Source: Leucoraja ocellata (taxonomy: Eukaryota). From it: a stretch of 64,000 nucleotides of DNA. Positions 1,454 to 64,000 of this stretch are shown here, piece by piece. Where the stretch lies: assembly GCA_036785375.1 (NCBI GenBank), contig JAWMAR010000471.1, positions 806,001 to 870,000 of the forward strand, given 5' to 3'. The notes under the pieces were generated by a model, which saw only the letters and a program-made list of their open reading frames with translations, was not told the origin of the DNA and searched no databases. Position numbers and translations under genes: made by a program. Position 1 is the stretch's first letter; each line of letters begins with the position of its first letter.

Positions 1454-1520
1454 CGGGTACTCCAATTGATGCCAGGATTGGGTAATAATAATATTCAACC
1501 GACATGTGCATCCGACCCAT
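1454..1520 (-). CDS. GPCR copy 1, exon 1 (MGRMHMSVEYYYYPILASIGVP)
   Basis: ATG at 1520; ends G|GTATGT phase-1 donor, which joins exon 2 in frame inside TM1 (IGVP-V-NLL). Confidence 0.9.
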
Positions 1521-2460: not shown

Positions 2461-2478
2461 AAAATATTACTGTGCTGT

Positions 2479-2921: not shown

Positions 2922-4185
2922 AATGTCTTCACTGACCGGTTGTTGGCTATTCAGAACAAATTGACCTCATGCCGTCGGCCAAGGCCCAGCCACGGTTTGT
3001 CCTAGTGGATTCACTACAGCGTTTTAATTTTGCATAAATATTCGAGCATATGTAGTCTTTTGTATCTCAGCGATTTGCAAGACGTATTGTTTCATGTATT
3101 GTTGGTTTAGTTAACTTTCCCTGTGTGAAATATACTCGTTTTACCGTTTTAATGTTGTAATCACTGCAACAGATGAGAAGCATGATTTGAGTGTGGCCCA
3201 AATCCAGCACGTGCACCCAAGTGGTCAAGCAGAACCTCCGAAATGAAGAAGGACGGATGGAGGAATTTGCATTTAGAGTCGGATTATTCTGGAGATGGTC
3301 AACAGGTCTCGGGGCATTGGCGGAATAAAATGTAATCATTCATCTTTGATCTCCTCTCAGGGATTCGGATTTCGGTAAAAAAAACCGCAGTTTGACCACG
3401 GGGAACAATGGAGGAAGAAACTGACTTTGGTGCCTTCCCACACAGTGGGAAACATTGATTCTGCTGTGTGGGGATGTTTTATGTCAAACCCTATAGTGTG
3501 TTGTGTCCTTTTTTTATTGTATGGCTGTATGGGAATTTCATTTCACTGTGCCATCTGGCACATGTGATGAATAAATCTATCCTGTATCTTGTATCTTGTT
3601 CAGTATCGCATCGATCTACTCTGCTCCATTGAAGCCTCACGACTCTCCACTATTTCATTCTATACTTCAGTGTCTCTTCTACGCTTTCCATTTTACGACA
3701 CGTCTCCTTGTAATGGCGTGAGAGGATCAGGGCGGAATACGTAAAGAGTTCCCTGCGAGTGTGTTAACAATTCTGGCATAACTTCTTTGTACTTCGCTTT
3801 TGTACTGTGGGCCCTTTAGCAGAAGTGATTTCAACAACCATTCGCCACTAGCCGCTTCATGACATACCATAGCGGAAGACAAAATACTTGCTGACGGTAT
3901 AAATTTTATTGGGGGTTCTCATCCTATGTCCGTTTATGTACGTACCCGTGCCTTACGATGCCTGCGTTAGATATGCATGTTCACACACTTCTACCAAACT
4001 CCCATCTAAGTCGTTGCTGTCAGACGTGCTCGTGCCATCCGAGCTACCGACGAAATACCATTCTGCCTTTCTAAAGACCATTTGGGACGACGAGTGAGCT
4101 AACCGTCCGTTGTCAGCTCCCAATCGAATCTCGATTGTAACCATCTAGGCTATTTCAGTCGCATTTTGGAGACTTAATACAAGGC

Positions 4186-4580
4186 ACGCTTGTACTCGCT
4201 AGAATTTAGAAGATTTAGGGGGGATCTTATAGAAACGTACAAAATTCTTAAGGGGTTGGACAGGCCAGATGCAGGAAGATTGTTCCCGATGTTGGGGAAG
4301 TCCAGAACCAGGGGTCACGGTTTACGGATAAGGGGGAAATATTTTAGGACCGAGGTGAGAAAAACATTTTTCACACAGAGAGTGGTGAATCTCTGGAATT
4401 CTCAGCCACAGAAGGTAGTTCATTGGCTATATTTAAGAGGGAGTTAGATGTGGCCCTTGTGGCTAAAGGGATCTGGGGGTATGGGGAGAAGACAGGTACA
4501 GGATACTGAGTTGGATGATCAGCCATGATCATATTGAATGGGCTGAATGGCCTACTCCTGCACCTATTTTCTATGTTTCT
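4186..4580 (+). mobile_element. CR1 LINE 3' end
   Basis: YSLEFRRFRGDLIETYKIL...SRTRGH...FFTQRVVNLWN; tail cctactcctgcacctattttctatgtttct. Confidence 0.9.
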
Positions 4581-5302
4581 GTGTTATTCAACGTGATCAA
4601 AATATCTGGCTACAGTGATTTTATTACCGTCGTTAAATTGTTAGGTTAGAATATGGAATTTCGAATGAAGCACAAATGGATTAGTTAATTATCCAGCATG
4701 ATAATCATGAAATACATGCATACTCTTTAATAAAACGTTACCACAAATACTTAGTACAGTAAAGAACCCACAGCCTCAAACTCTCCTTGGGTAAAACCAT
4801 CGGGCTATGTTTCATTGTCTGCTTTGATCAGTTTGTGTCTCAAGAAAACAGCCACCCCAGTGGATGCAGGAGTACATTCCGTTCACAATAAGTAGTTAAT
4901 AAACGCTGTGTTTGACAGAAAGACCAAGATCATGGTTAACTCAGAAGCATCTACATTCCTTTTGTTTGCATCGGCCTCCTTTCTGCCTCTCTAGCGAGAA
5001 TACTTTAAGAGGTATTTATTCCCCCATTGCACGAACGTTTCCCCTTTGCGAAGCAGTGGGTCTCCTAAATGAACAAGTTTGACGTCAATTTACTTTCAAT
5101 GGAGAAATGTTTTGTTTTCCAGATAGCTCACCGAAAGCATGCAGTCACCACCAGAAATAGACAAGAGTCAAGACACCGTGTGAATTCTTCTCTGACTGCG
5201 TCTCCCACCCGCACGCAAGCTGCGAATTTCGCGGCCGCTGCGCAAGCCGCAATGAACGACATCCATCCACGAGACAGCAGCTGTGCGCTTGAAATTCTCA
5301 CC

Positions 5303-23265: not shown

Positions 23266-23559
23266 TGCTTTGCCACCTGTACTCAGCTTGGCAGTAATAG
23301 GTGGCGCTGTCTTCAATTCTCAGATCCCGAATTTTCAACGTAAAGGTCATTTTTGCTTTTACGGTCCATGCAACAAATCGCCCCCCTCTGGTGATCAGCT
23401 GACGATCTGCGCCGGACTTGGTCTTCTTGAAAAAAATTCCACCCTGAAAACGGTAAGTTCCAGATGAACCATGTTGGAAACGGCAGGAGATTGTGAGAGA
23501 CTGACACTCCTTCACGGTTACCTCCGTCGGGCTCTGTATCACCGATTGACTGGAGGAAG
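23266..23559 (-). CDS. NAR-TCR V segment (IgNAR-like V domain)
   Basis: SSQSVIQSPTEVTVKECQSLTISCRFQHGSSGTYRFQGGIFFKKTKSGADRQLITRGGRF...TFTLKIRDLRIEDSATYYCQAEYRWQS. Short FR2 and no CDR2, with the VNAR-like I-x-x-GGR-F motif and an extra FR1 Cys. Confidence 0.88.
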
Positions 23560-23619
23560 CTGGAAACGAAACACAGTGAGGTGGGAATGGGCATCAGTAG
23601 ACGATTTCTGGACAGAACA

Positions 23620-27815: not shown

Positions 27816-29599
27816 GTTAGAACCGACCGTTGGGAAAATCAAAGTTCTGACAGTCTACCCTATCCACGCATATCAAGAACTAATGTAAACTAACTAAACT
27901 AGCACGCTGTACAAATTGGTGACCAGTAGCAAAGCAATTAGTGAATGTCTTTGCCAATTCGGCAAGATGGGCACATTTATTAAGAACAGCGTGTTTTAGA
28001 GCAGCAGTTGCTCATTTACCGGAATGGTGGCTGGATTAGCGGTGCAGGGAGAGGTTGGTCATCTTTGGATTCTTTCCCTCTGGAATGTCGGAGATTGCAG
28101 GAAGATCTCGTTGAGGTGTGTAAAGTTATGAGAGGCTTCGATGGGGTCTGCTCCCCCAACGCACCCGTTCCCTACCCGTAGCCCCCACAGGAGGCGTGGT
28201 CCTCCAACAGAAGCCGTTCCCGAACGTCAGTGAAGCTGATCACTGCTATCCGAGCCATCGTGACGTCATCAGTTGCAGCTAGCCGTGTTAATTTTCAAAG
28301 TAATTTGATTTTTTAAAACTTTAATCAGTAATGCCGAAAAATAAAGCATCACATGTTCAGCGAAGGTGCTCTCTGCCTGGAGGGGATAAATGTGGATCAG
28401 AATATGTAAAAATTTTGTGAAAGTTCACAATTTTAATGTTTTAATCGCGAATAATGTGAAATATAGGATGAAATCTTCAGGGACGCTGTTCACTGATAGC
28501 CGTGCCATTAAGCAGCTGGTCGATTTAAAGTCAAGTTCTTTTGACGTTTTTAAACTTCTTACTTACTTTTAATCAGTAATAAGTCAATAAATAAAGCATA
28601 AAATGTTCAGTGAAGGTGTCTCGGACTCGAGGGGAAAAACGTCAATCGTAATATGTAAACATGTAATTGTTACCGCGTCGGGAGAGGAGGATTTGGGGAG
28701 AGAGTGCTCAACTCAAATTTGGAGCTATACAGATCTCAGCCGCCATCGGTGGGGAAAATAAATTAATGGATTTCTCACATTTCCTTGCCCTGCAGGAGGA
28801 GATACATCCGACTCTCTGAGCATTCCCTCGAATCTAAAATAGGCAGAGCTCCAGCGTCGGCGCTGCATCAATGGAGGTGGGACATTAATGTAAATAGATT
28901 CAGCATATCTTTACCACACAGGTGAACTTACTCACTTTACCGCCCTCTACTGGACACTCGCTTGTTACACACTGCTTGCATTACAAATATAGTTAGTAAT
29001 GCCAACTTGTATGAATAGAACCCAGTACCTTTGGCTGCATCTGGTGCAGAGTTACTAATTGTACTGAAAACCGAAAGCCTCTGGAAGAAGCAACGAGGCA
29101 TTACATTCAGTGCGAGAAACAAATATAAAATCGAACTTTCATTGACGTAAATGTTGCAGCAACAATTTTATTAAACACATTTGTGCACTGGGCATTTATA
29201 TACGTAACCATGGGACGTCTCAAAGAATTGTAGAGTAATGGAGCATGCAATGTTTAGGACCATAATTCTATGTCTGTTTTCATCACGTGCTGGAGACGTT
29301 GCCGCTCGATTCAAAGGAAGGTGGAAACAGTTAACGGCGAGACTCAATTCCGGAATCTTTGGGGGTCTGCTCCAGTACAACATATAACTCGGTTAAACAT
29401 GGCCGCCCTCCCCACTGGGCACTTTGAACAACGCGCCCGTGTCGCATGTTAAATAGATGGCCAAATGTGCTTTCCAGTGCATGGGACGCGTTCGGATTCT
29501 ATTTCTCAACTATTTCTTTGAAAATTGATGCGGAATGATTTCAGAGAAAACTCCTTCATTACCTAGTGTTTGACTCACGGAGGGATCAGTAATGTAACG

Positions 29600-30513
29600 T
29601 TATTTTACACAAGGATTTCTCGATTTTATTAAACGTACAGTTAGGGTGAAGGGGTACATGGGTACCTGGATCAGATGCTCTCTGAACCTCCTCTGGGTCA
29701 CGGTGTAAATGAGCGTGTTTGTGCAGGTGTTCAACAGTTGTAGCAGAATTCCAGTTTGTTCAAATGTTGGAAATGGGTTCTTCAACCCCCTGTACATAAA
29801 TGCAATCGTACATCGATAGAATACGAAATATGCCACGTTTGTGCCCCAGAGCAGCATAAAACTGCTGGAGATTGCAAGGAGTAAAATTACGGACCGTCTG
29901 CGGTTTGCGATCTCGGGGTCCTCACTACTGAGATCGCGGAGTTTTCTGCGGACACGACTGGCCACTAAAATGCGCCTGACAGTGAGCACGTTCATCAGCA
30001 TAATCAAACAAAATGGAATGACTGGGACTAGCAGCTGTTGACTCCAGGAAAATACAATCCACGGGGGCAGGCTATAGAAGTGATATCGGATTCGGCAACC
30101 CCACGGTATACCCTGCCGATCCCTGAAATAATAACTGTACGCAAAAGGCCAGGGGACGTTCTGTAAACAGAAGAACGCCGTTAGGGTGACTATAACCACC
30201 AGCGCGGTTCTCTCGGTGCAGTATCTGGTTCTCAGATTCTGAGTGGAAATGGCCACAAAGCGATCAAATGTGAAAGCAACCGTGAGCCAAACAGAACAGG
30301 CAACGGCCGCGGGAGCGAGGAACATAATGGACCTGCACACAGTATTGTGGAAGAGGAATGAGTGCGCCCAGTAAAGGTCGGCAATCCGATGTAATATCAC
30401 TTCGCAGACGATCACCGAGAGGTCCACAGTCGCCATGGCCACCAGGTACCGAGTGGTGCATTTGGAGAGACCACAATTTCTGCGCGACAGGATCACAATC
30501 GCCAGCAAGTTCA
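29600..30513 (-). CDS. GPR139/GPR142-like GPCR copy 3, exon 2
   Basis: Intact ~304-codon frame; acceptor cgcAG|TG; DRF motif; NTCTNTLIY. Confidence 0.93.
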
Positions 30514-30689
30514 CTGCGGGTGTAGAAAAGAGGAAACTGTAGTTACATGTAAGGGAAACGCGATGCTAATTTGGAGGCGGGGATAAATTTAAGGCACGCT
30601 TTGCTTATTTGTTCGAAAACAACCGGCCCACATGCAAACCTGGGTGCTTGCGAAGGAGCTGTGCGGATTAGTTAGCAGCGGTCTACGCA

Positions 30690-31275
30690 GGTAGCGTGAG
30701 CTGTCTCCCAGCCACACTTGTTGCACCGCAGACTGCATATTGCAGCAACATGTCCGCATCAGACGCCATCGTCCTGGAACTAAACCCTTCCCGGGAACAG
30801 CCGGGCAACAAACGAGTCGAAAGTAAGATTCCCATTTCTCCGCTGGAGAACTTGCCTTCAACACTACTCCCATCCAAACCCATTGATAAACTCCACAGCC
30901 CAGCGATCAGTGCACCAGCTTGCGAATGGATACTCAACTTCCTAAAGAATAAACCGAGAGAATTAGTGGTAACACCCTTCCACAATAATTCTCAACAACG
31001 GTGCCGCACAAAACTTGTTGTGGGGCCACCTATGCCCCATAAAGAATAAATTGCACAGGGTTCTGGAAGACGCCGGGTCCATATCACGAAATAGACTCCG
31101 CACTGTTGACTGCGTTCGCACGTCACAATCGTTTGGAAACGGAGACATGTCTCACCCCGCGCATTCCTTCTACTTCCTGCTCCGTCGGGCAGAAAATGGA
31201 GAAGGCTTAAAGCTCGCCCCACCAGACTCCAGAACAGCTCTTTCCCCTCTGTTGTCAGGCTTCTGAGCAGCTCTT
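30690..31275 (+). mobile_element. Degenerate Rex1/Babar LINE fragments in the GPCR intron (paralog at ~43680-44265)
   Basis: PSKPIDKLH...CEWILNFL and LLPAPSGRKWRRLKAR.TRLQNSSFPSVVRLL. Confidence 0.65.
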
Positions 31276-31590
31276 CCATATGCCAGGGTATTGTCATTTC
31301 CATGTTTCACCTCTATCCCCTTGCGGACATTGGTCTTTGTGGAAGTGATACGCTGCAGTGCGCTCCCAAACTTGAACTACGCGCTGCACTCCGATTTCAC
31401 CTCTTACACTACCTGTTACTGAGATTGAATTGTTTGTACTGTTATTTAATATTATTTGATCTAATTTGGATTTCTTGCAAACCAATGCGTTTTGCAGCTC
31501 CCGGAGAGACATGGCAACAATGCACCTAAACCTGAAGAGAATTAACCTGTGCCTGATCCAATGAACGACCAACGATCAAGTAGCTTAACA

Positions 31591-31666
31591 AAGGAATAGG
31601 TGACGTTTCGGGTCGAGAACCTTCTTCAGACTGATCAGTCTCGACCCGAAACGTCACCTATTCCTT
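31591..31666. repeat. 28-bp inverted repeat of Penelope-type termini with a hammerhead-like motif (paralog 44572-44647)
   Basis: aaggaataggtgacgtttcgggtcgaga ... tctcgacccgaaacgtcacctattcctt. Confidence 0.8.
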
Positions 31667-31903
31667 CGCTTCATAGATGCCGCTTCACCCGCTGTATAAT
31701 TCTCCAGCATTTTTGTCTAGATTCGATGCCTCCAGCAACTGCAGTAATTTCTTAAACAAACATTTTCAAATACCGCCCTAACCTGAAGAATGCAGTCTAG
31801 TATTCCCGTGTTTCGCACACTATTTACACTTTACCTTTGACATTGTCTTTATCAACACATCATCCCACATCTCAGTCCCACTTACTGCGTTCCATTCACC
31901 TAC

Positions 31904-31973
31904 CGGGTACTCCGATTGCTGCCAGAATTGGATAATAATAATATTCCAATTCCAAGTGCCACTTCCAACCCAT
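31904..31973 (-). CDS. GPCR copy 3, exon 1 (MGWKWHLELEYYYYPILAAIGVP)
   Basis: ATG at 31973; donor G|GTAGGT. Confidence 0.92.
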
Positions 31974-34078
31974 TTTTCCTTCAAGCCGTCCGCAGTTATG
32001 CAGTGCAAAACTTATAGGAGTCAAAGTGAGAAGTCAAACACCGCTATATTTATATTTTTTGAAAAACTTAAGGACTGCGTGCGTTCACCTCCCCGCGGAC
32101 ATTTATTGTGGACCGTTGAACAAACAGTTTGCTCCCAGGTGATGCAACGCGATCAAACTCATTATGCGACCGCTCACTACTCGGGCACCAGCTGAGCACC
32201 AACAGAACAAAGGAACTGTAAAATACGAGTCATCATTCTATTTTTTAATTTTAACGCATGGCACACATATGCAGCAAAATTCGTGTATTGTAGCATTTAT
32301 CCACACATGCTGCGATGTAATACAGTATATTACTTGTCGCATTTGCAATGCATTTTCCAGAAACCGTTCCCTTCATTTAACATGCACCCATTAATAATTT
32401 CATCTTGCAATATCCGTGGAGCTGCCTTTCAAAAGGAAAGATAATCATATTTTGGCAGGGTCTAAATGATGTAAACCACAGGGAACCTTCTAGACGACAT
32501 CGTATACAATTCAGCTACAACAGCAGCATTAATGTATTTCAACTGTTGCCACTTCATGAAGTAAAGAATAGGCGAATATAATGTGTAATGTGACAACTGA
32601 CTGGAAATAAACAGCGGCTAGAAATATTATTGATCAACAGGCTATCTTTAAATGAATGTGTTAAATCATAAAACACAGAGGTGAACAGCTGTTGGTGTTA
32701 TTCCAGATATTAGGGCGAAATATTCTCAATGCATTAATCCTTTTGAGATATCACGAATGTTGATGTGCAAGATGATAGAACGAATTGAATGGGTCTGATC
32801 GGCTGTAAATGTTTGGGGATAGATCATTCTGAAGAAAGATTTGACCTAAGAAAGAAGTGTCATGTTTGCTGCACTCGACCTAAGGAATTCGCAGGAAAAG
32901 GAACTTCACAATGCAGTACAGCACAGGAACAGGGATATTATTTTTCGAAATAATGAATTACGGATCAATTTAAACTAGGGAGGATGCAACTCTCCTCACA
33001 CGAATGATGCTAGTATTTGGCAGTGTGAATTGTGAGATGGACTGGATAATGCAGAATTGTTTTCCCTCTGCAGCGAACAAAACCATGATGAGTTATGGAG
33101 GGTTAAAATATGAGAAGATGATCAGTTCAAGTATTACCCACTGAACTTTCTGAATTTTGAAGTAGGCAGGGCAGTACTCTGCATATCGCCAAGTTGGATA
33201 ATTTAACTTTTTTTTTTATCAAGCCAATTAACATAGACAAATAGAAACATAAAAATAGTTGCAGGAGTAGGCCATTCGGCCCTTCGAGGCTGACCGCCAT
33301 TCAATATGATCATGGCTGATCATCCAACTCAGTATCCTGTTCCTGCTTTTTTTCCATACCCCCTGATCCCTTTACCCACAAGGGCCATATCAAACCCCCT
33401 CTTAAATATAGCCAATGAACTGGCCTCAACTACCTTCTGTGGCAGAGGGTTCCAGAGATTCACCACTCTCTGTGTGAAAAAAATGTTTTTCTCATCTGGG
33501 ACCAAAAATAATTCCCCTTTATCGTTCAACTGTCACCCCTTGTCCTGGACTTCCCCAACAACGGGGACAATCTTCCTGCATCTAGCCTGTCCAACCCCTT
33601 AAGAATTTTGTAAGTTTCTATAAGACCCCCCCTCAATCTTCTAAAATGTAGCGAGTACAAGCCGAGTCTATCAAGTCGTTCTTCATATGAAAGTCCTGAC
33701 ATCCCAGGAGTCAGTCTGGTGAACCTTCTCTGTACTCCCTCTATGGTAAGAATGTCTTTCCTCAGATTTGGAGAACAAACTGTACGCAATACTCCTGGTG
33801 TTGTCTCCTATACTCAAATCATTTTTCTATGAATGCTAACATACCATTCGCTTTCTTCACTGCCTGCTGCACCTGCATGTCTACTTTAAATGACTGGTGT
33901 ACCATGACACCCAGGTCTCGTTGCATCTCCCCTTTTCCTAATCGGCTACCATTCAGATAATAGTCTACTTTCTTGGGTTTGCCACCAAAGTGGATAACCT
34001 CACATGTATACACATTATATTGCATCTGCCATGCATTTTCCCACTCACCCAGCCTATCCAAGTCACCCTGCAGCCTCT

Positions 34079-35750
34079 TAACCATATAACCATATAACAA
34101 TTACAGCACGGAAACAGGCCATCTCGGCCCTACAAGTCCATGCCGAACAATTTTTTTCCCCTTAGTCCCACCTGTCTGCACTCGTACCATAACCCTCCAT
34201 TCCCTTCTCATCCATATGCCTATCCAATTTATTTTTAAATGATACCAATGAACCTGCCTCCACCACTTCCACTGGGAGCTCATTCCACACCGCCACCACT
34301 CTCTGCGTAAAGAAGTTCCCCCTCATATTACCCCTAAACTTCTGTCCCTTAATTCTGAAGTCATGTCCTCTTGTTTGAATCTTCCCTATTCTCAAAGGGA
34401 AAAGCTTGTCCACATCAACTCTGTCTATCCCTCTCATCATTTTAAAGACCTCTATCAGGTCCCCCCTTAATCTTCTGCGCTCCAGAGAATAAAGACCTAA
34501 CTTATTCAACCTATCTCTGTAACTTAGTTGTTGAAACCCAGGCAACATTCTAGTAAATCTCCTCTGTACTCTCTCTATTTTGTTGACATCCTTCCTATAA
34601 TTTGGCGACCAAAATTGTACACCATACTCCAGATTTGGTCTCACCAATGCCTTGTACAATTTTAACATTACATCCCAGCTTCTATACTCAATGCTCTGAT
34701 TTATAAAGGCTAGCATACCAAAAGCTTTCTTTACCACCCTATCTATATGAGATTCCACCTTCAAGGAACTATGCACGGTTATACCCAGATCCCTCTGTTC
34801 AACTGTATTCTTCAATTCCCTACCATTTACCATGTACGTCCTATTTTGATTTGTCCTGCCAAGGTGTAGCACCTCACATTTATCAGCATTAAACTCCATC
34901 TGCCATCTTTCAGCCCATTTTTCCAAATGGCCTAAATCACTCTGTAGACTTTGGAAATCCTCTTCATTATCCACAACACCCCCTATCTTGGTATCATCTG
35001 CATACTTACTAATCCAATTTACCACACCTTCATCCAGATCATTGGTGTACATGACAAACAACAAAGGACCCAACACAGATCCCTGAGGCACCCCACTAGT
35101 CACCTGCCTCCAACCCGATAAACAGCCATCCACCATTACCCTCTGGCTTCTCCCATTCAGCCACTGTTGAATCCATCTTGCTATTCCTGCATTTATACCC
35201 AACAGTTGAACCTTCTTAACCAACCTTCCATGAGGAACCTTGTCAAAGGCCTTACTAAAGTCTATATAGACAACATCCACTGCTTTACCCTCGTCAATTT
35301 CCCTAGTAACCTCTTCAAAAAATTCAAGAAGATTAGTCAAACATGACCTTCCAGGCACAAATCCATGTTGACTGTTCCTAATCAGACCCTGTTTATCTAG
35401 ATGCTTATATATATTGTCTCTAAGTATCTTTTCCATTAATTTGCCCACCACTGAAGTCAAACTAACAGGTCTATAATTGCTAGGTTCACTCTTAGAACCC
35501 TTTTTAAACAATGGAACAACATGCGCAGTACGCCAATCCTCGGGGACTATTCCCGTTTCTAATGACATTTGAAATATTTCTGTCATAGCCCCGGCTATTT
35601 CTACACTAACTTCCCTCAATGTCCTAGGGAATATATTGTCGGGACCTGGAGACTTATCCACTTTTATATTTTTCAAAAGTGTCAGTACTTCATTTGCTTT
35701 GAAACTCATAGTATCCATAGCTACTCTACTAGTTTCCCTTACCTCACATA
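34079..35750 (-). mobile_element. Young 5'-truncated CR1 (accatata-tail family), uninterrupted 518-codon RT frame
   Basis: [31 protein letters not shown] and YADD. Confidence 0.95.
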
Positions 35751-36177
35751 ATTAGCATCATCTTAGCATAATTAGCATTAGCATCTTAGCATCATCCTCA
35801 CAGCTACAATTGCCCCCCAGCTTCGTGTCATCGCAAACTTGGAGATGTTGCATTCAATTCCCTCGTCCAAATCATTAATATATATTGTGAATAGCTGAGG
35901 TCCCAGCACCGAGCCTTGCGGCACTCCACTAGTCACTGCCTGCCATTCTGAAAAGGACCCGTTTACTCCTACTCTTTGCTTCCTGTTTGCAAGCCAGTTC
36001 TCTATCCACATCAATACTGAACCTCCAATACCGTGTGCTTTAAGTTTGTATACTAATCTCTAATGTGGGACCTTGTCGAAAGCCTTCTGGAAGTCCAGAT
36101 ATAACACATCCACTGGTTCTCCCTTACCCACTCCATTAGTTACATCCTCGTTAAATTCCATAAGATTCGTCAGACAT

Positions 36178-36905
36178 ATAACCATATAACCATATAACAA
36201 TTACAGCACGGAAACAGGCCATCTCGGCCCTACAAGTCCGTGCCGAACAACTTTTTTTCCCTTAGTCCCACCTGCCTGCACTCATACCATAACACTCCAT
36301 TCCCTTCTCACCCATATGCCTATCCAATTTATTCTTAAATGATACCAACGAACCTGCCTCCACCACTTCCACTGGAAGCTCATTCCACACCGCTACCATT
36401 CTCTGAGTAAAGAAGTCCCCCCTCATGTTACCCCTAAACTTACGTCCCTTAATTCTGAAATCATGTCCTCTTGTTTGAATCTTCCCTATTCTCAAAGGGA
36501 AAAGCTTGTCCACATCAACTCTGTATATCCCTCTCATCATTTTAAAGACTTCTATCAAGTCCCCCCTTAACATTCTGCGCTCCAGAGAATAAAGACCTAA
36601 CTTATTCAACCTATCTCTGTAACTTAGTAGTTGAAACCCAGGCAACATTCTAGTAAATCTCCTCTGTACTCTCTCTATTTTGTTGACATCTTTCCTATAA
36701 TTGGGCGACCAAAATTGTACACCATACTCCAGATTTGGTCTCACCAATCCCTTGTACAATTTTAACATTACATCCCAGCTTCTATACTCAATGCTCTGAT
36801 TTATAAAGTATAGCATACCGAAAGCTTTCTTTACCATCCTATCTATATGAGATTCCATCTTCAAGGAACTATGCACGGTTATTCCCAGATCCCTCTGCTC
36901 AACTG
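36178..36905 (-). mobile_element. 5'-truncated CR1 (accatata-tail family)
   Basis: Near-identical to 34079-34806. Confidence 0.93.
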
Positions 36906-38179
36906 GATTTGCCTTTCGTAAATCCATGCTGACTTTCTCCAATGATTTCACCACTTTCCAAATGTGCTGCTATCCCATCTTTAATAACATACTCTAGCAG
37001 TTTCCCCACTACCGATGCTAGATTAACTGGTCTGTAATTCCCAGTTTTCTCTCTCCCTACTTTTTTTAAAGTGGGGTTAAATTAGCTACCCGCAATCCAC
37101 AGGAACCACTCCAGAATCTAAGGAGTTTTTAAAAATGATCACTAATGCATCCACTATTTCTGTGGCTACTTCCTTAAGTACTCTGGGATGCGGCCTATCT
37201 GGCCCTGGGGGTTTATCAGCCTTTAATCCATTCAATTTACCTCACACCACTTTCGGCTAACCTGGATTTCACTCAGTTCCCCAATCTCACTTATCCCGCG
37301 GTCCCCTACTATTTCCGGCAGATTATTTATGTCTTCCTTACTGAAGACAGAACCAATGTAGTTATTCAATTGGTCTGCCATGTCCTTGTTCTCTATGATC
37401 AATTCACCTGTTTCTGACTGCAAATGACCTACAATTGTTTTAACTAATCGTTTTCTCTTCACATATCTATATACACATTTGCAGTCCGTTTTTATGTTCC
37501 CTGCCAGTAATCTATGTTCTATTTCCTAATTAAGCCCTTTCTCCTCCTCTGCTGGACTCGAAAATGTCTCCCAGTCCTCTGGTAGGCTGCATTTTCTTGC
37601 TAATTTGTACGCTTCATATTTTGTTTTGATACTATCCTGATTTCCCTTGTTATCCACGGATGCACTACCTTCCCTGATTTATTATTTTGCCAAACTGGGA
37701 TGAACAATTGTTGTAGTTCATCCATGCAGTCTTTAAATGCCTTCCATTGCATATCCACCGTCAACCCTTTAAGAATCAAATGCCAATCAACCTTGGCCAA
37801 TTCACGTCTCATACCCTCAAAGTTACTTTGCTTTAACTTCAGAATCCTTGTTTCTAAATTGAAAATGTCACTCTCCATCATAATGAAGAACTCAACCATA
37901 TTATGGTCACTCTTGTCCAAGGGGCCACGCTCAACATGACTTGTTGTCCTTCGATCTTGGCATAGAGATCTAGTGTCATACAGCGTGAAAAATAGTCTCC
38001 CGGCCCAACCTGCCCACGATCAAAAATGTACCCCATCTGCACACCCCCACCTGCCTACGATTGGCCCATATTCCTGTTAACATATCTTATCCATGTCCCT
38101 GTCGCAATATTTCTTAAACGTTGCGACAGTACCTGCCTCAACTACCTTCACCGGCAGCATGCTCCATACACAGGTGGTG

Positions 38180-40295
38180 GAGAGAAAACTGGGTCTTTAC
38201 ATAAGGACTTGGATAGGTTGGGAGAGTGGGTAGAGAAGTGGCAGATGGAATATTGAGTAACAAAGTGTGGAGTCAGCATTTTGGTAGAAGGCGTAGAATA
38301 TTTCAAAAAATGGGGAGAGAATCAAGAAATCGAAGGTGCAAAGGGACATGAGAGGGCTAGTGCAGGATTCCCAAACCAGGTAATTTGCAAATCGAATTGG
38401 TAGTAAAGAAGGCAAACGCAATGGTAGCATTTACTTCCATCGGGAAAGAATACAACAACAGGTATGTAATACTGAGGCACTACAAAGGCGCTGGTCAGGT
38501 CGCCTTTGAGTATTGTGACCAATTGTGGGTACCATATCTGAGGAAGGATGAGCCAGCTGCGGAGAGGGTCCAGAGGACGTTTACAACACCAATTTCAAGA
38601 ATGAGGCAGTTAAAATATGTTGATCGTTTGAAGACACTGAGCCTGTACTCGCTGGAGACTGGAAGCATCAGGGGGGGACCACATTGAAACTTACCGAATC
38701 GTGAAAGGTTTGCATAGAATGGACGTGGAGAGGATGATTCCACTAGAGGGAGAATCTAGTTTATTTTTAATGTCTATAAATAGTAAATTGTTTCCAGCTT
38801 GTAGTACAGTGCTACTGTATGGGGTGATCGATGGTAAGCGCAGATTGTGTGGGACGAAGGGCCTGTGTCCACAGCGGATCTCCGATATCTTGAGCCTATG
38901 TTCCTTGGGCGCACGAGGCAGAGTGTATGAAGTCATTAGCGGATTGGACAACGTGAATCACGCGTGAATCACAGTGGGAAACTTTATTCTGCTGTGTGGG
39001 GATGTTTTATGTTGGACTCTATCGTGTGTTGTGTTCTTTATTTTATTGTATGGTTGTATGTTGACCACACACTGGTACATGTGACAAATAAATGTATCTT
39101 GTATCTTGTCCTTTACCCAGAGTTGGAGAATCAAGAACCAGAGGAATTGGGTTAAAGGTGAGAGGGGAAATATTTAACAGGAACGGGAGGGAAACTTTTG
39201 CACTTGAGAAGGTGATGGGTATCACTTGGTGTCCTTGTTCATCACTCACTGAAAATAAGCATGCGGGTACAGCAGGCAGTGAAGAAATCTAACTGCACGT
39301 TGGCCTTCATACCAAGAGGAATTGGGTATTGGAGTAAAGAGGCCATTCTGCAGTTGTACAGGGCCCTAGTGAGGCCACACCACGAGTATTGTGTGCATTT
39401 TTGGTCTCCAGATTTGAGGAACGACATTCTTGCTATTGAAGGAGTGCACCGTAGGTTCACGAGGTTAATTCCCGGGACGGCGGGACTATCATATGCGGAT
39501 ATAATGGAGCGGCTGGTCTTGTATACACTGGAATTTAGTAGGATGAGAGGGGGTCTTTTTGAAACATAAAAGATTATTAAAGGATTGGACAGGTTGGAGG
39601 CAGGAACCATGTTCCCGATGTTGAGAGGGTCCAGGCCTAGGGACCACAGTTTAAGAATAAGTTGTAGGCTATTTAGCAAGCGGGAGATCATGCAGTTTTA
39701 TGCGAATTTAGCGGAGGTGTTCCACGAAACATTCCTGCACATTACCCTGTGTTGTGCCTGTTAATTTACTTGCAAATGTTGAGCACCCTAGCTTAAAAAG
39801 TAACACATGTGTTTGTGAAATAAATTAGTTTATGGGTCTGGAAGCAGAGAGAGAAGGTCCTGCAGATATGAACAGTTGGAAATTAGCTGATAAGCTTCAT
39901 TTCAATAGACAATAAGTGCAGGAGTAGGCCATTCGCCCTTCGAGCCACCACCGCCATTCAATGTGATCAAGGTTGATCATCCACAATCAGTACCCCGTTC
40001 CTGTCTTCTCCCCTTTCCCCCTGACACCACTATCTTTAAAAGACCTATCTAACTCTCTCTTGACAGTATCCAGAGAACCGGCCTCCACAGACTCAGTACT
40101 ATGTGTGAAAATTTGTTTCGGTATCTCCATTTAAATGGCTTACCCCTTATTATTAAACCGTGGACCTGGTTCTGGACTTCTCCCAACATCGGGAACATGT
40201 TTCCTGCATCGAGCGTGTCCAAACCCTCAATAATTCCAATATATACAAGCCCAGTCACTCCATTATTTCAACATCTGCCAGACCAGCCATCCCGG
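38180..40295. mobile_element. Old CR1 fragments (38180-38760 +, 39110-39680 +, 39905-40295 -)
   Basis: Degenerate VKKAN, LYRALVRPH and RRFTRLIPG translations. Confidence 0.8.
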
Positions 40296-41380
40296 GTAGA
40301 ACCGACCGTTGGGAAAATCAAAGTTTGGACAGTCTACCCTGTAGACACCTATCATGAACTAATGTAAACTAACTAAACTAGCACGCTGTACTAATTGGTG
40401 ACCAGTAATACAGCCATTAGTGAATGTATTTGCCAACTATGCAAGATGGACACCTTTAATAAGAACAGCGTGTTTTGGAGTCGCAGTTGCTCATTTACCG
40501 GAATGGTGGCTGGATTAGCGGTGCAGGGAGAGATTGGTCATATTTGGATTCTTTCCCTCTGGAATGTCGGAGATTGCAGGAAGATCTGGTTGAAGTATAT
40601 AACGTTATGGGAGGCTACGATAGGGGCTGCTCCCCCAACGCACCCGTTCCCTACCCGTAGCCCCACAGGAGGCGTGGTCCCCCAACTCAAGCCGTTCCCG
40701 AACGTAAGTGAAGCTGATCACTGCTAGCCGAGCCATTGTGACGTCATCAGTTGAAGCTAGTCGTTTTCAATTCAGTCTTTTGATTTTTTTTTTTACTTAA
40801 AGCAGTAATGTCGAGAAATAAAGCATAACATGTTCAGCGAAGGTATTTTCGGCCTCGGGAGGGACAATGCCAATCAGAATATGTAAAAATGTAATCGTTA
40901 CCGCGTCGGGAGCGGAGGATTTGGAGAGAGAAAACTCAACTCAAATTTGGAGCTATACAAATCTCAGCCGCCATCGGTGAAGAAAATAAATTAATGCATT
41001 TCTCACATTTCCTTGCCCTGCGGGAGGAGATAAATCCGACTGTGAGCACTCACTCGAATCTCCAATAGGCAGAGTTCCAGCGTCGGCGCTGCATCAATGG
41101 AGGTGGGACATTAATGCAAATCGATTCAGCATCTCTTTACCACTCAGGTGAACTTACTCACTTTACCGCCCTCTACTGGACACTCCCTTGTTACTCATTG
41201 CTTGCATTAAAAATATAATTAGTAATGCCAACTTGTATGAATAACACCCACTCACTACCTTTGGCTGCATCTGATACTGAAATACTAATTGTACTGAAAA
41301 CCGATAGCCTCTGTAAGAAGCGACGAGGCATTACATTCAGTGCGAGAAACAAATATAACATGGAACTCTCATTAACGTAA

Positions 41381-41900
41381 TGTAAAGTTGGTCAGATCCT
41401 GACCAACTTTTACCGCTGTACTATCGAAAGCATCCTGACCACCTGCTTCACGGTATGGTACAGCAGTTGCACCGTAGCGGACAGGAAGGCACTAGAACGG
41501 GTGGTTAAAACCTCTCAGTACATCATCGGTGCCCCGCTCCCTGCCATGGATGCCCTGCACCGAAAACGGTGTCTGAGACGGGCCGGGAAGTTCATCAAAG
41601 AACCCTCCCACCCTAACCATGGACTGTTTGCCCACCTCCCATGAGGTAGGCGGTACAGGAGCCTCGGGTCTCGTACCAGTAGGATGAGGAACAGCTTCTA
41701 CAAGAACACTATCACATTGCTGAACTCGGAGTCCCGCCGATAGATTTCTCCAGTCTCTCCGTCCACATTGTTTGCTTATTCTGAATTTTTATTTCTATGT
41801 TGCACTATTACCACGGACTGACGCTAAACTGCATTTCGTTGTACCCGTACTTGTATCTGTGCAATGACAATAAAGTTGAATTGAACTGAATTGAATTGAA
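41381..41900 (+). mobile_element. Rex1/Babar LINE 3' end
   Basis: ILTNFYRCTIESILT...DRKALERVVK...CLRRA..IKEPSHPNHGLF...RRYRSL; aataaagttgaattgaactgaattga tail. Absent from duplication copy A. Confidence 0.88.
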
Positions 41901-42583
41901 ATGTTGCAGGAAGAATTGTACTTACTCACCTTACAGCCCTCTACTGGACACTAGCTTGTGACACTCTGCTTCCATTAAAAGTATAGTTAGTAATGCCAAC
42001 TTGTTTGAACGGCACCGACTACCTTTGGCTGCATCAGGTGCAGAATTACTAATTGTACTGAAAGCCGAAGGCCTCTGTAAGAAGCAATGAGGCATTACAT
42101 TCAGTGCGAGAAACAAATATAAAATGGAACTCTCACTATCGTAAATGTTGCAACAAGAATTTTATTAAACACATTGGTGCACCGGGCATTTACATACGTA
42201 ACCATGGAACGGCTCAAAGAATTGTAGAGTAATGGAGCATGCAATGTTTAGGACCATAACTCTATGTCTGTTTTCATTGCGTGCTGGAGACGTTGCCGCT
42301 GGATTCAAAGGAATGTGGAGACAGTTAACGGCGAGGCTCAATTCCGGATTCATTGGAGGTCTGCTCCAGTACAACATAGCACTCGTTCCATGTGGCCGCC
42401 CTTCCCACTGGGCACTTTGAACAACGCGCCCGTGTTGCATGTTAAATAGATGGCCAAATGTACATTCCAGTGCAGGGGACGCGTTCAGAATATATTTCTC
42501 AGCTATGTTTTTAAAAATTGATGCGGAAAGCTTTCAGACAAAACTCCTTCATTACCTAGTTTCTGCACTGACTCACGGTGGGA

Positions 42584-43509
42584 TTAGTAATGTAATGTTA
42601 TTTTACACCGGTTTCTCGATTTTATTAAACATACAGTTAGGGTGAAGGGGTATATGAGTACCTGGAACAGCTGCTCTCTGAACCTCCTCTGGGTCACGGT
42701 GTAAATGAGCGTGTTTGTGCAGGTGTTCAACAGTTGTAGCAGTATTCCAGTTTGTTCAAATGTTGCAAATCGGTTCATCAACCCCCTGAACATAAATGCA
42801 TTCGTAATTCGATAGAAAACGAAATATACTACATTTGTGCCCCAGAGCAGCATAAAACTGCTGGAGATTGCAAGGAGTAAAATTACGGACCGTCTGCGGT
42901 TTGCGATCTCGGGGTCCTCACCACTGAGATCGCGGAGTTTTCTGCGGACACGACTGGCCACTAAAATGCGTCTGACTGTGAGCACGTTCATCATCATAAT
43001 CAAACAAAATGGAATGACTGGGACTAGCAGCTGTTGAGTCCAGGAAAATGTTATCCACAAGGATAGGCTATAAAACTGATATCGTATTCGGCAACCCCAC
43101 AGTGTACCCTGCTGATCCCTGAGATAATAAATGTACGCAAAAGGCCAGGGGACGTTCTGTAAACAGAAGAACGCAGTTAGGGTCACTATAACCACCAGCG
43201 CGGTTCTCTCAGTGCAGTATCTGGTTCTCAGATTCTGAGTGGAAATGGCCACAAAGCGATCAAATGTGAAAGCGACCGTGAGCCAAACAGAACAGGCAAC
43301 GGCCGCGGGAGCGAGGAACATAATGGACCTGCACACAGTATTGTTTAAGAGGAATGTGTTCACCCAGTAAAGGTCGGCAATCCGATGTAATATCACTTCG
43401 CAGACGATCACCGAGAGGTCCACAGTCGCCATGGCCACCAGGTACCGAGTGGTGCATTTGGAGAGACCACAATTTCTGCGCGACAGGATCACAATCGCCA
43501 GCAAGTTCA
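42584..43509 (-). CDS. GPR139/GPR142-like GPCR copy 4, exon 2
   Basis: Intact ~308-codon frame, about 90% identical in protein to copy 3; acceptor cccAG|TG. Confidence 0.93.
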
Positions 43510-44888
43510 CTGGGGATGTAGAAAAGAGGAAACCCGTTACATGTAATGGACACGCGATGCAAATTTGGAGGCGGGGGTCAAACTTTGCTTATTTGTTCGA
43601 AAAAAACTGCCCACATGCAAACCTGTGTGCTTGCTAAGGAGCTGTGCGGATTAGTTAGCAGCGGTCTACGCAGGTAGCGTGAGCTGTCTCCCAACCACCC
43701 GTGATGCACCGCAGACTCTATATTGCAGCAACATGTCCGCATCAGACGACATCGTCCTGGACCTAAACCCTTCCCGGGAACAGCCGGGCAACAAAGGAGT
43801 CGAAAGTAAGATTCCCATTTCTCCGCTGGAGAACTTGCCTTCAACACTACTCCCATCCAAACCCATTGATAAACTCCAGAGCCCAGCGCTCAACACACCA
43901 GCTTGCGAATGGATACTCAACTTCCTAAAGAATAAACCGCGAGAATTAGTGGTAACACCCTTCCACAATAATACTCAACAACGGTGCCGCACAAAGCGTG
44001 TTGTGGGGCCATCTATGCCACATAAAGAATAAATTGCACAGGGTTCTGGAAGACGCCGGGTCCATATCACGTAATGGACTCCGCACTGTTGACTGCGTTT
44101 GCACTTCACAATCTTTTGGAAACGGAGACATGTCTCACCCCGCGCATTCCTTCTACTTCCTGCTCCGTCGGGCAGAAAATGGAGAAGGCTTAAAGCTCGC
44201 TCCACCAGACTCCAGAACAGCTCTTTCCCCTCTGTTGTCAGGCTTCTGAGCCGCTCTTCCATATGCCAGGGCATTGCCGTTTCACCTCTATCCCCTTGCG
44301 GACATTGGGCTTTGTGGAAGTGATACGCTGCAGTGCGCTCCCAAACTTGAACTGCGCTCTGCACTCCGATTTCCCCTCTTACACTACCTGTTACTGAGAT
44401 TGAATTGTTTGTACTGTTATTTAATATTATTTGATCTAATTTGGATTTCTTGCAAACCAAAGCTTTTTACAGCTCCCGGAGAGACATGACAACAATGCAC
44501 CTAAACCTGAATCTGAAGAGAATTAACCTGTGCCAGATCCAATGAACGACCAACGATCAAGTAGATTAATAAAGGAATAGGTGACGTTTCGGGTCGAGAC
44601 CCTTTTTCAGACTGATCAGTCTCGACCCGAAACGTCACCTATTCCTTCGCTTCATAGATGCCGCTTCACCCGCTGTCTAATTCTCCAGCATTTTTGTCTA
44701 GATTCGATTTCTCCAGCAACTGCAGTAATTTCTTAAACAAACATTTTCTAGTTAATACCGCCCTAACCTGAAGAATGCAGTCTAGCATTCCCGTGTTTCG
44801 CACACTATTTACACTTTACCTTTAACATTGTTTTTATCAACATATCATCTCACGTCTCAGTCCCTCTTACTGCGTTCCCTTCACCTAC

Positions 44889-44958
44889 CGGGTACTCCGA
44901 TTGCTGCCAGAATTGGATAATAGTAATATTCAACTTCCAAGTGCCACTTCCAACTCAT
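44889..44958 (-). CDS. GPCR copy 4, exon 1 (MSWKWHLEVEYYYYPILAAIGVP)
   Basis: ATG at 44958; donor G|GTAGGT. Confidence 0.92.
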
Positions 44959-46829
44959 TATTCCTTCAAGCCGTCCGCAGTTATGCAGTGCAAAACTTAG
45001 AGAAGTCAAAGTGAGAAGTCAAACAGCGCTGTATTTATATTCCTGGAAAAAAGTGAAGTACTGCGTGCGTTCACCTCCCCGCGGACATTTATTTTGGACC
45101 GATGAACAAATAGTTTGCTCCCATGTGATGCAAAGCGATCAAACTCATTATGCGACCGCTCCCTACTCAGGCACCAGCTCAGCACCAACAGAACAAAGGA
45201 ACTGTAAAATACGACTGCACATTCTATTTTTAAATGTTAACGCGTGGCACACAGATGCAGCAAAATTCATGTCATGTAGTATTTGTCTACACATGCTGCG
45301 ATGCAACACAGTATTTCATTTGTAGCATTTGTAATGCATTTTCCAGACACCGTTCCATTCATTTAACATGTACCCATTAATAATTTGATCTTTCAAAAGG
45401 AATGATTATTATTTTAGGGCAGGGTCTAAATGATGTAAATCACAGGGAACCTTCCAGAAGACATCGTATACATTCAGATACAACAGCAGCATTAATGCCT
45501 TTCAACTGTTGGCACCGCATGAAGTAAAGGATAGGCGAATATAATGTGTAACGTGACAACTCACTGGAAATAAACAGCAGCTGGAAATATTCTTGATCAA
45601 CAGGTTATCTTTAAAGAAATGTGTTAATTCATAAAACATAGAGGTGACCAGCTTTTGATGTTACTCCAGATATTAGGGCGAAATCTTCTCAATGCATAGA
45701 TCCGTTGGAGATATCAAGAATGTTGATGTGCAAGATGATAGAACCGATTGAATCCGCTAAGGAGACGCTGACCAGCGGTACATGTTTTGGGATAGATAAT
45801 TTTGAAGAAAGTCTTGACCTAAAAAAAAGTGTCATGTTTGCTGCACTCAAACTAAGAAATTCAAAGGAAAAAAAATCTTCACAAAGCAGTACAGCACAGG
45901 AACAGGGATATTAATTTTCGAAATAATTAATTAAGGATCCATTTAAACTAGGGAGTATGCAACTCTCCTCACACGAATGGTACTAATATTGGACAGTGCG
46001 AATTGTGAGATGGACTGGATAATGCAGAAGCTTTTTCTCTCTGCAGCGAACAAAACAGGAGGAATTATGGAGAATTAAAATATGACAAGGTGATCAATTG
46101 AGGTATTATATTTTGTTCCTAAGGTATAGGTCTCTACAATAAGTAAATATTTAAAGGGCACGCAGCGCCAACTTCCCCTCACGGGAGGGGCAGGTATATT
46201 GAACCAACTCTCACTGTAAGTGGTAGTTGCATGTTACACAGCACAGAAACAGGGCCCTTTCTCCATCTTGTTCATGAACTATTTGCTTACAACCAATGCG
46301 AGTAAATTTGAATGTGGATGGTAAGATTTTTTTCCCTCAGCCAGCTGGAGGTGTGGGCTTATTTCACGGCAGGAGTCGCACGCAGTTGGATATAAGTGGA
46401 GTTTAACCACCTGGTCTGGGACGTTGACGAGGCCGCACGTGCAATATTGTTCAGATCGCAATATGTTAGCGATGATACAATTAAACTGGGGGTGGCAGCG
46501 TATTAATGACAAAGTTTTTGCCTGGACTGGTGTGGTGGTTCAATCCTGAGAGAGACTGTATAGGTCAGGATATGTTATTTCTCTGGACCGAACGATGTTG
46601 TGATTTGACATTTCAAGTTTTGAACGTTTTCACGAGAGACAGTATAATCAAGACAGTCGTCGAAATGCCCAATTGTGTTCCAAATGACGAGGAAGAGAGA
46701 TTTAGTAGAGATGTAGGCTCGGATGTTATGTGCAGAAATTTGCGCCTTGCCCCGGCGGAAGGTGATGTGTTGTTCTTAGATCTTGGCATAAAGTCCTGGT
46801 GTCATCTGGCAAGCGCGAGCAAACCAGAA

Positions 46830-62667: not shown

Positions 62668-62734
62668 CGGGTACTCCAATTGATGCCAGGATTGGGTAAT
62701 AATAATATTCAACCGACATGTGCATCCGACCCAT
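62668..62734 (-). CDS. GPCR copy 6, exon 1 (MGRMHMSVEYYYYPILASIGVP)
   Basis: Identical to 1454-1520; donor GTATGT. Confidence 0.92.
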
Positions 62735-63694
62735 TTCTCCTTCAAAGCGACCTCGGAAACTCAGTACACAGCTTACAGATGTTATAGTGGGAGGTTAAAC
62801 CGCTTGACATTTATAACCCAAGAAGAAGATTCACGAGTTATTGTGATAACCTCCCTGTGGACATTCATTACGGATTTTGCTCCCGTGTGATGTTATACGA
62901 CAACAATCACGAGGGTGGTCGTTCGCTGCACATGCACCAATTGAGCGCGTACAGAACTAACACACTGTAAAGTAGGATTGCGAAAAATATTTCGCAATTT
63001 AAATATGTTCCACGGAGGTTGCAGCTGCAGAAAGGTCCGACAGAAATATCAGTCAACAACACACGATCCAATGAGGAACTGCAGATGCTGGTTTAAACAG
63101 AAGGTAGACACAAAAAGCCGGACTAACTCAGCGGGACCGACAGCATCTTTGGAGAGAAATAAATGGTTGGCGGTTCGGGTCAAGACCTTCTTCACTGTGA
63201 AGAAGGGTCTCGAACCGAAACGTCACTCCAGCTTTTTCTGTCTATCGTTTGTTTATTCGGAAAACTTGAACTACAGTTCCCAGACACTGACCCAATCCCT
63301 TTAAATTTACCACTATCGATTTCTTCCCAGGTGCTTCCAGTGGGCCCTGTTGAAACATACATTAGAAAGGTTCGTGTGTGTGTTCTTATTTACATTCTTC
63401 ACGGGGAAAGATCAGGGGGAAACCTATGCCCTCTGGTCCTCGATGCACCTACTCTGGAAAGAGACTCGGCATCGTCCCGACCTTATCCTCTATAGTTTGT
63501 ACATCTCGATAAGAACACCCCTCATCCTGCTACACTTCGTGGATAGAGACCCAGCCTACAGAACCTCTCCTCATTACTCATACCCTCTCGTCCTGGAAAC
63601 ATGCTCGTATATCTTTTCTGAACCTTTTCAAGCTTGTCAATATCTTTCCTATAACATGGTGTCCAGAACTTAACAAAAATATTACTGTGCTGTC

Positions 63695-64000
63695 ATTGAT
63701 TGTTGGTCTGCACAGTGCTTGAACTGAATTATAGGTCTGCACTGTGCTTGAACTGATTTATTGGTCAGTTCTACTGTACTTGAACAGAATTATTGGTCTG
63801 CACTGTGCTTGAAGTTAACTATTGGTCTGCACTGTGCTTGAACATAAGTGTTGGTCTGCACTGTGCTTGAACTGTATTGTTGATCTGCACTGTGCCGGAA
63901 CAGAATTGTAGGTCTGCACTGTGCTTGATCTGAATTGTTGTTGTACACTGTGCTTGAACTGAATTGTTGGTCTACAATGTGCTTGAACACAATTGTTTGT
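63695..64000. repeat. 29-bp minisatellite, second copy (runs off the window)
   Basis: Same units as 2479-2921. Confidence 0.95.

Follow-up and report, generated by a model that had tools for sequence, protein, structure and literature searches.

Extracellular loops very probably under positive selection in a large GPR139-like receptor family lying partly among T-cell receptor-type V segments in the skate Leucoraja ocellata

G protein-coupled receptor (GPCR) repertoires that diversify over ligands include the olfactory receptors (ORs), TAARs, V1Rs, FPRs and MRGPRs. GPR139 is a single conserved gene, and sharks and rays are thought to have small repertoires of classical olfactory receptors. As far as the available text of PMC8807744 goes, GPR139 is activated by L-Trp, L-Phe and alpha-MSH. 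GPR139 and GPR142 form the sister group of protostome receptors for aromatic amidated peptides, and aromatic peptides and amino acids elicit responses from relatives in the wider group (PMC8557429, in its accessible portion), a point that we count in favour of the reading given here. Coelacanth and fish orphans of the GPR139-like group have been named GPR210A/B (PMC6504862, excerpted text), and the FMRFamide-receptor-like expansion in Lymnaea (PMC11589774, excerpted text) serves as a comparison among expanded repertoires. Here we describe two receptor genes, termed genes 3 and 4, in a window of 64,000 nucleotides from L. ocellata (assembly GCA_036785375.1, contig JAWMAR010000471.1, hereafter C471, positions 806,001 to 870,000 of the forward strand). 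They belong to a large and recently re-duplicated GPR139-like family with selected and reshuffled extracellular loops, which we consider is probably an inherited repertoire for varied external, probably peptide-like, ligands. The literature that we searched held no description of a GPR139-like expansion in cartilaginous fishes or of selection on it, although subscription papers and supplements may hold one; the searched portions of PMC12227049, PMC3964593, PMC8455134, PMC11979771 and PMC12698447 contain no mention of GPR139.

The comparison of genes 3 and 4 gives the pattern in its simplest form. A sequence-only reading of the window had counted 24 amino-acid differences before the C-tail, with 21 of them in three short extracellular-facing patches, and a codon-by-codon comparison of exon 2 (codons 1-279) returned exactly these figures. 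Five lie in the first extracellular loop (ECL1; AHSFLFH versus VNTFLLN, codons 50-56), ten in ECL2 and the top of transmembrane helix 5 (TM5; codons 127-158) and six in ECL3 (codons 235-249), and the peptides quoted for each patch match the sequence. The other three replacements are at codons 173, 197 and 228, and exon 1 contributes two further N-terminal differences. TM1-TM4 and the first two intracellular loops were said to be identical, and the protein of codons 1-49 and 57-126 does not differ between the genes. When regions are fixed from the AlphaFold secondary structure (ECL1 49-56, ECL2 126-149, ECL3 236-248), 45 loop codons and 45 outer-helix codons count as extracellular-facing, that is 90 of the 279 codons; 21 of 24 replacements fall there (hypergeometric p = 6.9e-9), and 15 of 24 in the loops themselves (p = 6.4e-8). 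Codons that differ only synonymously, 14 in number, are scattered along exon 2 with no significant clustering in extracellular regions (6/14, p = 0.28), and the two kinds of change differ in placement (Fisher p = 0.008). The proportion of nonsynonymous differences (pN) in the loops, 15/101, is three times the intron divergence of 61/1279 (p = 2e-4). Genes 3 and 4 are not sister duplicates, each having closer relatives elsewhere in the array.

Judged from their predicted products, both genes are class A GPCRs. Pfam 7tm_1 scores 61.8 bits in gene 3 and 55.7 in gene 4, above the cut-off of 30.5, and Pfam returned no other match for either. The AlphaFold model of gene 3 exon 2, in which TM1 is partial, forms a seven-helix fold with an ECL2 hairpin and helix 8 (predicted local distance difference test score 86, predicted template-modelling score 0.81), and Foldseek aligns it to peptide receptors with template-modelling scores of 0.62-0.74. 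The core motifs of the class are present (D2.50, the C3.25-ECL2 disulfide, D-R at 3.49-3.50, W6.48, N7.49, Y7.53); D31, R85, W223 and N266 are invariant across 110 aligned homologs, C60 and C140 are invariant in the four clades analysed below, and both P6.50 and P7.50 are replaced by Thr. Membership in the OR, V1R, V2R, T2R or TAAR families was rejected, 7tm_1 being the only match and the top PDB matches being GPR139, peptide or chemokine receptors.

Among solved structures a profile of the family matched GPR139 best (E 1e-18; next 6e-12), and gene 3 as a single query gave no GPR139 match at E <= 0.001. The profile reached E 2e-62 to an amphibian gene and 3e-54 to a coelacanth gene, in a library far larger than the PDB-sized one used for GPR139. 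The weaker GPR139 score and the unconserved agonist pocket rule out that genes 3 and 4 are GPR139 orthologs: residues E108, F109, H187, R244 and N271 of the GPR139 pocket (taken from PMC8807744, available text) become A, P, Q, N and I in the family, as mapped by alignment and helix register, with 5.43 uncertain by a few residues. Like GPR139 and GPR142, the skate receptors have a short N-terminus, W6.48 and L7.42; unlike GPR139, they keep the TM3-ECL2 cysteine pair (the aligned GPR139 lacks a cysteine at the TM3 position) and form a family of hundreds. They also resemble an amphibian and sturgeon GPR139-like gene, of which Pleurodeles XP_069092602.1, 30% identical to gene 3, is the best non-chondrichthyan match among the ten named. 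Conservation sets this amphibian gene apart from the skate family: frogs and caecilians retain it at 66-74% (the Xenopus tropicalis homolog is P0293), and it forms one 90%-identity cluster in each listed species. In a FastTree of 38 proteins, built without GPR139 itself and disregarding one mis-extracted row (L151, 57 aa), the sister of the entire chondrichthyan expansion is the salamander gene (support 0.99). The window subfamily, comprising clades A-D, joins genes of shark and sawfish first (0.98) and a chimaera gene next (0.99). For the coelacanth gene P0229 there is a separate, single ortholog in the skate genome (L148, C16:5041988-5042941, 62%), a GPR139-like gene which stands outside the expansion and provides a slow-evolving control. 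Neither the amphibian nor the coelacanth gene is matched by accession to GPR210A/B. A search seeded with amphioxus GPR139 gave nine proteins with no vertebrate GPR139 among them, and the atlas neighbours of the GPR139/142 lineage are invertebrate FMRFamide/srw-type receptors.

Searched with gene 3, the genome yields at least 130 matches, of which about 50 reach 80% identity or above; genes 3 and 4 are two of some 50 close copies. A distant homolog as query added at least 119 non-overlapping matches, bringing the family to at least 249, and further searches gave more clusters. These counts are lower bounds, drawn from the best 120-130 or so of some 4000-5000 candidates scored per genome search, and they include haplotigs, as does the 3.44 Gb source assembly. 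Databases gave 1060 homologs; among the best 120 of these, the 119 with a named species are without exception chondrichthyan, nearly all labelled 'probable GPR139', the closest named one being a Leucoraja protein at 86%. Tandem paralogs and pseudogenes, features of birth-and-death evolution, are both present. The haplotigs, and the different gene order on C471 and on a second contig, C1182, might raise the suspicion that repeats were collapsed or mis-polished, an explanation to which we give practically no credence: genes 3 and 4 have near-identical counterparts on that second contig, 2 and 3 nt apart, which refutes it; the frames are intact and errors would not favour replacement changes in loops; and a Leucoraja homolog carries loop variants that are also present in the window genes.

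For the analysis of selection, exon 2 was extracted from 122 of 130 sequences (L030, L042, L050, L065, L088, L089 and W2 were not extracted, and L094 was dropped for an early stop). A three-member clade C2, five outlying copies and near-duplicates (<=3 nt apart) were left out, and the deduplicated clades A, B, C and D comprised 37, 30, 15 and 18 sequences. FastTree branch lengths were used, which the IQ-TREE codon step left unchanged. In the 27 primary-contig copies of clade A, models allowing sites with a nonsynonymous to synonymous rate ratio (omega) above one were favoured by twice the log-likelihood difference (2dlnL) of 112 (M1a/M2a), 114 (M8a/M8) and 130 (M7/M8). In clades A, B, C and D the M2a 2dlnL was 110, 113, 34 and 74, with omega2 of 4.7, 6.0, 4.3 and 6.1 at 7-11% of codons. 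High-posterior sites are concentrated on the extracellular face (A 10/10, B 10/13, C 7/8, D 10/15; together 37/46, Fisher p 6e-6 to 4e-3); those of clade A are ECL1 50-51, ECL2 130, 141 and 143 beside the disulfide cysteine, 151, and several in 235-249 around ECL3. Purifying selection holds in the helical core and the intracellular loops, where the ratio of pN to the proportion of synonymous differences (pS) is 0.32-0.51. Raised posteriors for omega > 1 also occur away from the extracellular face of gene 3, at codon 33 (TM2) and at 280-294 (helix 8 and C-tail). Independently of any tree, the loop pN/pS is 1.13 in A, 5.75 in B, 1.05 in C and 1.43 in D, and in clade B the loop pN of 0.129 stands against a loop pS of 0.022 (bootstrap P < 0.001). 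Hypermutable CpG sites were rejected as the cause of the loop excess, the loops being poorer in CpG than the core and the transversion-only loop pN exceeding the gene-wide transversion pS in all four clades.

Recombination is the main complication. The pairwise homoplasy index (PHI) test detected it in all four clades (p <= 0.006), and L037 is a clear mosaic, its 5' half agreeing with L038 (1, 0 and 2 nt apart over the first three segments) and its 3' half with L033 (2, 0 and 3 nt apart over the last three). The 37 clade-A copies carry 35 different loop combinations, and distances correlate only weakly between segments (0.11-0.50). In a clade-A cluster on contig C128 (a subset of L004-L026) the coding cores are far more alike than the loops or introns, which suggests that the core has evolved strongly in concert; its intron and flank distances, being inflated by poor alignment, are used qualitatively only. 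The earlier suggestion of diversifying selection or patchwise gene conversion thus turned out to be right on both counts, since both operate family-wide, with omega > 1 sites in four clades alongside PHI signals and mosaics.

It may therefore be asked whether the loops are merely unconstrained and the core homogenised by conversion, so that patches and false site-model signals would appear with no positive selection at all. Several observations weigh against selection, or limit it. The loop pS is about twice the core pS in clades A and C, and about six times in the C128 sub-cluster (0.089 versus 0.015), where introns are far more divergent; because of this raised loop pS, the loop excess in part reflects deeper ancestry or a homogenised core. 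The loop-average pN/pS is near one in A and C and exceeds it significantly only in clade B, and the gene 3/gene 4 pair alone has no significant excess of loop pN over pS (0.148 versus 0.089; bootstrap P = 0.18). Transversion-only loop pN is not above loop pS in clades C and D, and sites chosen by cross-validation exceed loop pS alone significantly only in B (A P = 0.06, C 0.33, D 0.15). Some high-posterior sites are not extracellular (5/15 in D, 3/13 in B), and clade A shows no variation at 11 of the 14 positions mapped to the GPR139 inner pocket. PHI on synonymous sites alone (14-31 sites) is not significant in any clade. The codon models are our own implementation (GY-type, F3x4, branch lengths from nucleotides under a single fitted scale, posteriors by naive empirical Bayes), and false positives do arise: conversion-only simulations with omega <= 1 gave likelihood-ratio test (LRT) values up to 24 (15 runs), and a null in which conversion was combined with loops twice as deep, again with omega <= 1, produced in every one of 16 runs LRTs between 9 and 64, with omega2 as high as 3.8. 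Since conversion nulls yield such large whole-gene LRTs, the chi-square p-values are far too small, and they were discarded as a measure of strength. One simulated scenario, in which loops were protected from conversion, did not reproduce the raised loop pS, and an explicit twofold loop rate was used instead.

Measured against these nulls, the LRT (110), omega2 (4.7) and loop pN (0.129) of clade A lie above all 16 runs. With a local tree and synonymous rate for each segment, the result is significant in 8 of 12 segments from the loops and in 1 of 12 from the core (codons 1-35, in clade A), and the summed loop LRTs of 46, 31, 26 and 24 in A, B, C and D exceed those of all nine conversion-only simulations calibrated to clade A (0.4-12). 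With free regional rates the LRT is still 39 and omega 3.6. Sites picked from the other three clades have a pN 1.5-3.7 times the extracellular pS (P 0.014, 0.001, 0.051 and 0.054), and per-site pN correlates between clades in 6/6 pairs (p < 0.05), pS in 0/6. In each clade 10-23 of the 45 loop codons are invariant, yet the loop average is at or above one. The tree-free values of clade B largely refute for that clade the explanation without selection, which we regard overall as quite unlikely. The sequence-only reading had stated that its inference would fall if loop ratios did not exceed one family-wide and synonymous changes clustered in the same patches, and the outcome is divided: averages of only 1.05-1.43 in A, C and D and the doubled loop pS in A and C go part of the way, but site-wise omega > 1 survives local trees, regional rates and cross-clade validation, and clade B reaches 5.75 with low loop pS. 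The signal is cleanest in clade B and weaker in C and D, and we hold with high confidence that positive selection on the loops is real.

What the selection is for is a separate matter. With most pocket-equivalent positions invariant in clade A, ligand switching at the core pocket is not supported. The receptors could instead share one endogenous ligand, the loops diversifying to escape a docking virus, parasite protein or toxin; most of the selected sites are on the outside of the receptor, distinct clades show positive selection at comparable positions, and the conserved pocket would fit. Escape alone, however, does not require hundreds of intact copies, pocket residues differ between clades, and the in-pocket position 6.51 (codon 226, R244 of GPR139) is itself selected in the primary set (posterior 0.98-0.997). 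We therefore think an arms race of this kind improbable, if less so than the explanation without selection.

The window contains three immunoglobulin (Ig) V exons with recombination signal sequences (RSS), and a scan of the window found five RSS, every one at an Ig V cassette; neither gene 3 nor gene 4 has one. One cassette fits the layout of NAR-TCR loci (NAR V, D, J, then a second V) described in the available text of PMC12227049. C471 also carries 127 of 150 scored matches to T-cell receptor (TCR)-type V segments, interleaved with receptors, for which reason it is likely the TCR alpha/delta locus, as is inferred from the V segments, RSS and NAR-type cassette together; a search for C1-set domains placed none on this contig among its own 150 scored matches, and the TCR constant region was not located. 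At 1.00-1.24 Mb of C471 a NAR-type V, a supporting V and a receptor repeat as a unit. The clade-A cluster on C128 lies about 0.25 Mb from C1-set Ig domains. Such a location among TCR V segments suggests an immune role. On C1182, which together with C471 appears to represent two haplotypes, a TCR V separates the gene-4-like copy from the gene-3-like one, at a place where LINE (long interspersed element) fragments and no V stand in the window; receptor number also differs between the contigs, suggesting structural polymorphism or assembly differences. Stop-free NAR-type V matches number 21, on C471, C1182 and C2754.

The interleaving, together with the repeated unit at 1.00-1.24 Mb, would also be expected if the receptors were passengers of V-segment duplications, or had a T-cell role tied to the locus, their diversity being a by-product. 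Selection is cleanest, though, in clade B, which lies outside the functional V array and has kept its receptors while the accompanying V segments decayed. A translocated array (C10:6.10-6.52 Mb, C7:0.61-0.66 Mb, C2063, C2073 and C3594) was built by copying each GPCR with a NAR-type V; on these contigs 24/24 co-duplicated V matches contain stops and 33/35 neighbouring receptors do not, so that the receptor was retained there and not the V. Its receptors, which belong to clade B, are mostly intact and strongly selected, and some copies share a four-codon deletion in ECL2. Many family clusters, moreover, lie on contigs without a V match among those listed, and the olfactory receptor genes that lie among mammalian TRA V segments are not known to have a T-cell role. 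We accordingly put little faith in the passenger explanation.

Table 1. Positions, in window coordinates, of genes 3 and 4, their variable patches and the neighbouring features
Feature	Position	Strand	Remarks
Gene 3 exon 1	31904..31973	-	ATG start; encodes the short N-terminus and TM1 up to its middle in 23 codons + 1 nt; followed by a GT donor
Gene 3 phase-1 intron	30514..31903	-	1390 nt, GT...AG
Gene 3 exon 2	29600..30513	-	Remainder of TM1 through C-tail; 304 codons, then TAA; intact
Gene 3 ECL1 variable patch	30347..30367	-	Codons 50-56; sites 50 and 51 with posterior 1.0 for omega > 1
Gene 3 ECL2/top of TM5 variable patch	30041..30136	-	Codons 127-158; selected 130, 141, 143 and 151 flank the invariant ECL2 cysteine (140)
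Gene 3 top of TM6/ECL3/top of TM7 variable patch	29768..29812	-	Codons 235-249; selected 235, 241, 247 and 249
Gene 4 exon 1	44889..44958	-	70 nt, as in gene 3
Gene 4 phase-1 intron	43510..44888	-	1379 nt
Gene 4 exon 2	42584..43509	-	Intact, 308 codons + stop; patches 43363-43343, 43132-43037, 42808-42764
Homologous block around gene 3	28923..33136		90.7% identity over 4241 columns to 41917-46108 around gene 4
TCR-type V segment	5303..5653	-	23-spacer RSS at 5341
Clade D-type family member (exon 2 open reading frame)	14145..15224	+	Context
NAR-TCR-type cassette, apparently intact	18330..23593	-	Name inferred from the layout in PMC12227049 (available text)
Supporting V	18370-18687	-	23-spacer RSS at 18368; extra cysteine in complementarity-determining region (CDR) 1
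Likely D and J	12-spacer RSS at 22869; oppositely oriented 23-spacer RSS at 22474	-	RSS scan
NAR-like V	23261-23593	-	22-spacer RSS at 23265; best single-domain PDB matches are VNARs
Frameshifted family member, likely pseudogene	57139..58051	-	Context
Clade B-related family member	61050..62108	-	Near-identical copy (1-894) runs off the window start

The exon 1/exon 2 junction of gene 3 is identical in the annotated model of an Amblyraja homolog (P0003). Reads of three sequencing runs cover the receptor intron, with no splice joint among those listed, and thus behave as DNA, which bears on expression neither way. Elsewhere in the window, a recent segmental duplication, within C471:801.9-917.5 kb, relates window positions 1-2788 to 61215-64000 (about 99% identical, 61.2 kb apart); the duplicated unit consists of a broken receptor, an intact receptor and a TCR V, with a third copy near C471:888-898 kb. 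Reverse-transcriptase LINE fragments, which from their sequence character we take to be CR1-like, are numerous (for example at 34165-35751 on the minus strand), one open frame reaching 529 codons, and a tandem repeat with a 29-nt unit occupies 2500-2990.

Returning to the reading of the family as an inherited sensor repertoire, which likely also describes the role of genes 3 and 4, tandem birth and death has produced the hundreds of copies, all presumably with one signalling core in common and an inner pocket that is conserved. Ligand specificity would be set by the outer vestibule, made up of ECL1 50-52, the part of ECL2 around the disulfide cysteine, 6.51, ECL3 and 7.30-7.32, and conversion would spread and recombine favoured loop modules while homogenising the core. 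Within this repertoire reading, sensing of foreign peptides by leukocytes or at barriers, by analogy with FPRs or MRGPRs, seems to us marginally probable, neuronal chemosensing a lesser but serious prospect, and any other use improbable. A bolder proposal, which we advance tentatively and think rather unlikely as it stands, is that of a third germline receptor repertoire in and around the chondrichthyan antigen-receptor complex, its loops selected and module-shuffled, which leukocytes or T cells would use for pathogen-derived peptides; it would descend from a gene that amphibians kept conserved and at low copy number, and the family could then be deorphanised in Xenopus.

Expanded GPCR repertoires work through genes clustered in tandem, birth and death, conversion, and positive selection of the surface that faces the ligand, and the pattern here is that of known receptor repertoires, but by its sequence the skate family belongs to none of the OR, FPR or MRGPR families. 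Unlike these and the TAARs and V1Rs, the skate gene has an intron, matches only 7tm_1 and derives from the GPR139/142 peptide-receptor lineage. The three hypervariable patches on a conserved frame, with TCR V segments adjoining, also recall antigen-receptor CDRs and the grooves of the major histocompatibility complex (MHC), and the combination of conversion and selection with raised linked synonymous diversity resembles the MHC. The CDR-like pattern proposed at the outset stands as an analogy only: unlike that of antigen receptors, the diversity is germline and spread over paralogs, and no RSS lies in or around genes 3 and 4.

Variable loops on a conserved core are familiar from other receptor families, which limits the surprise. 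The skate family nevertheless amounts to hundreds of intact orphan GPCRs from one lineage, with repeated positive selection on the predicted ligand-facing surface. Direct tests of the family are possible through the sites under selection, the loop chimeras that occur naturally and the conserved relative in amphibians, and whether its use is immune or chemosensory, it would represent a large missing class of sensors in the oldest lineage of jawed vertebrates.

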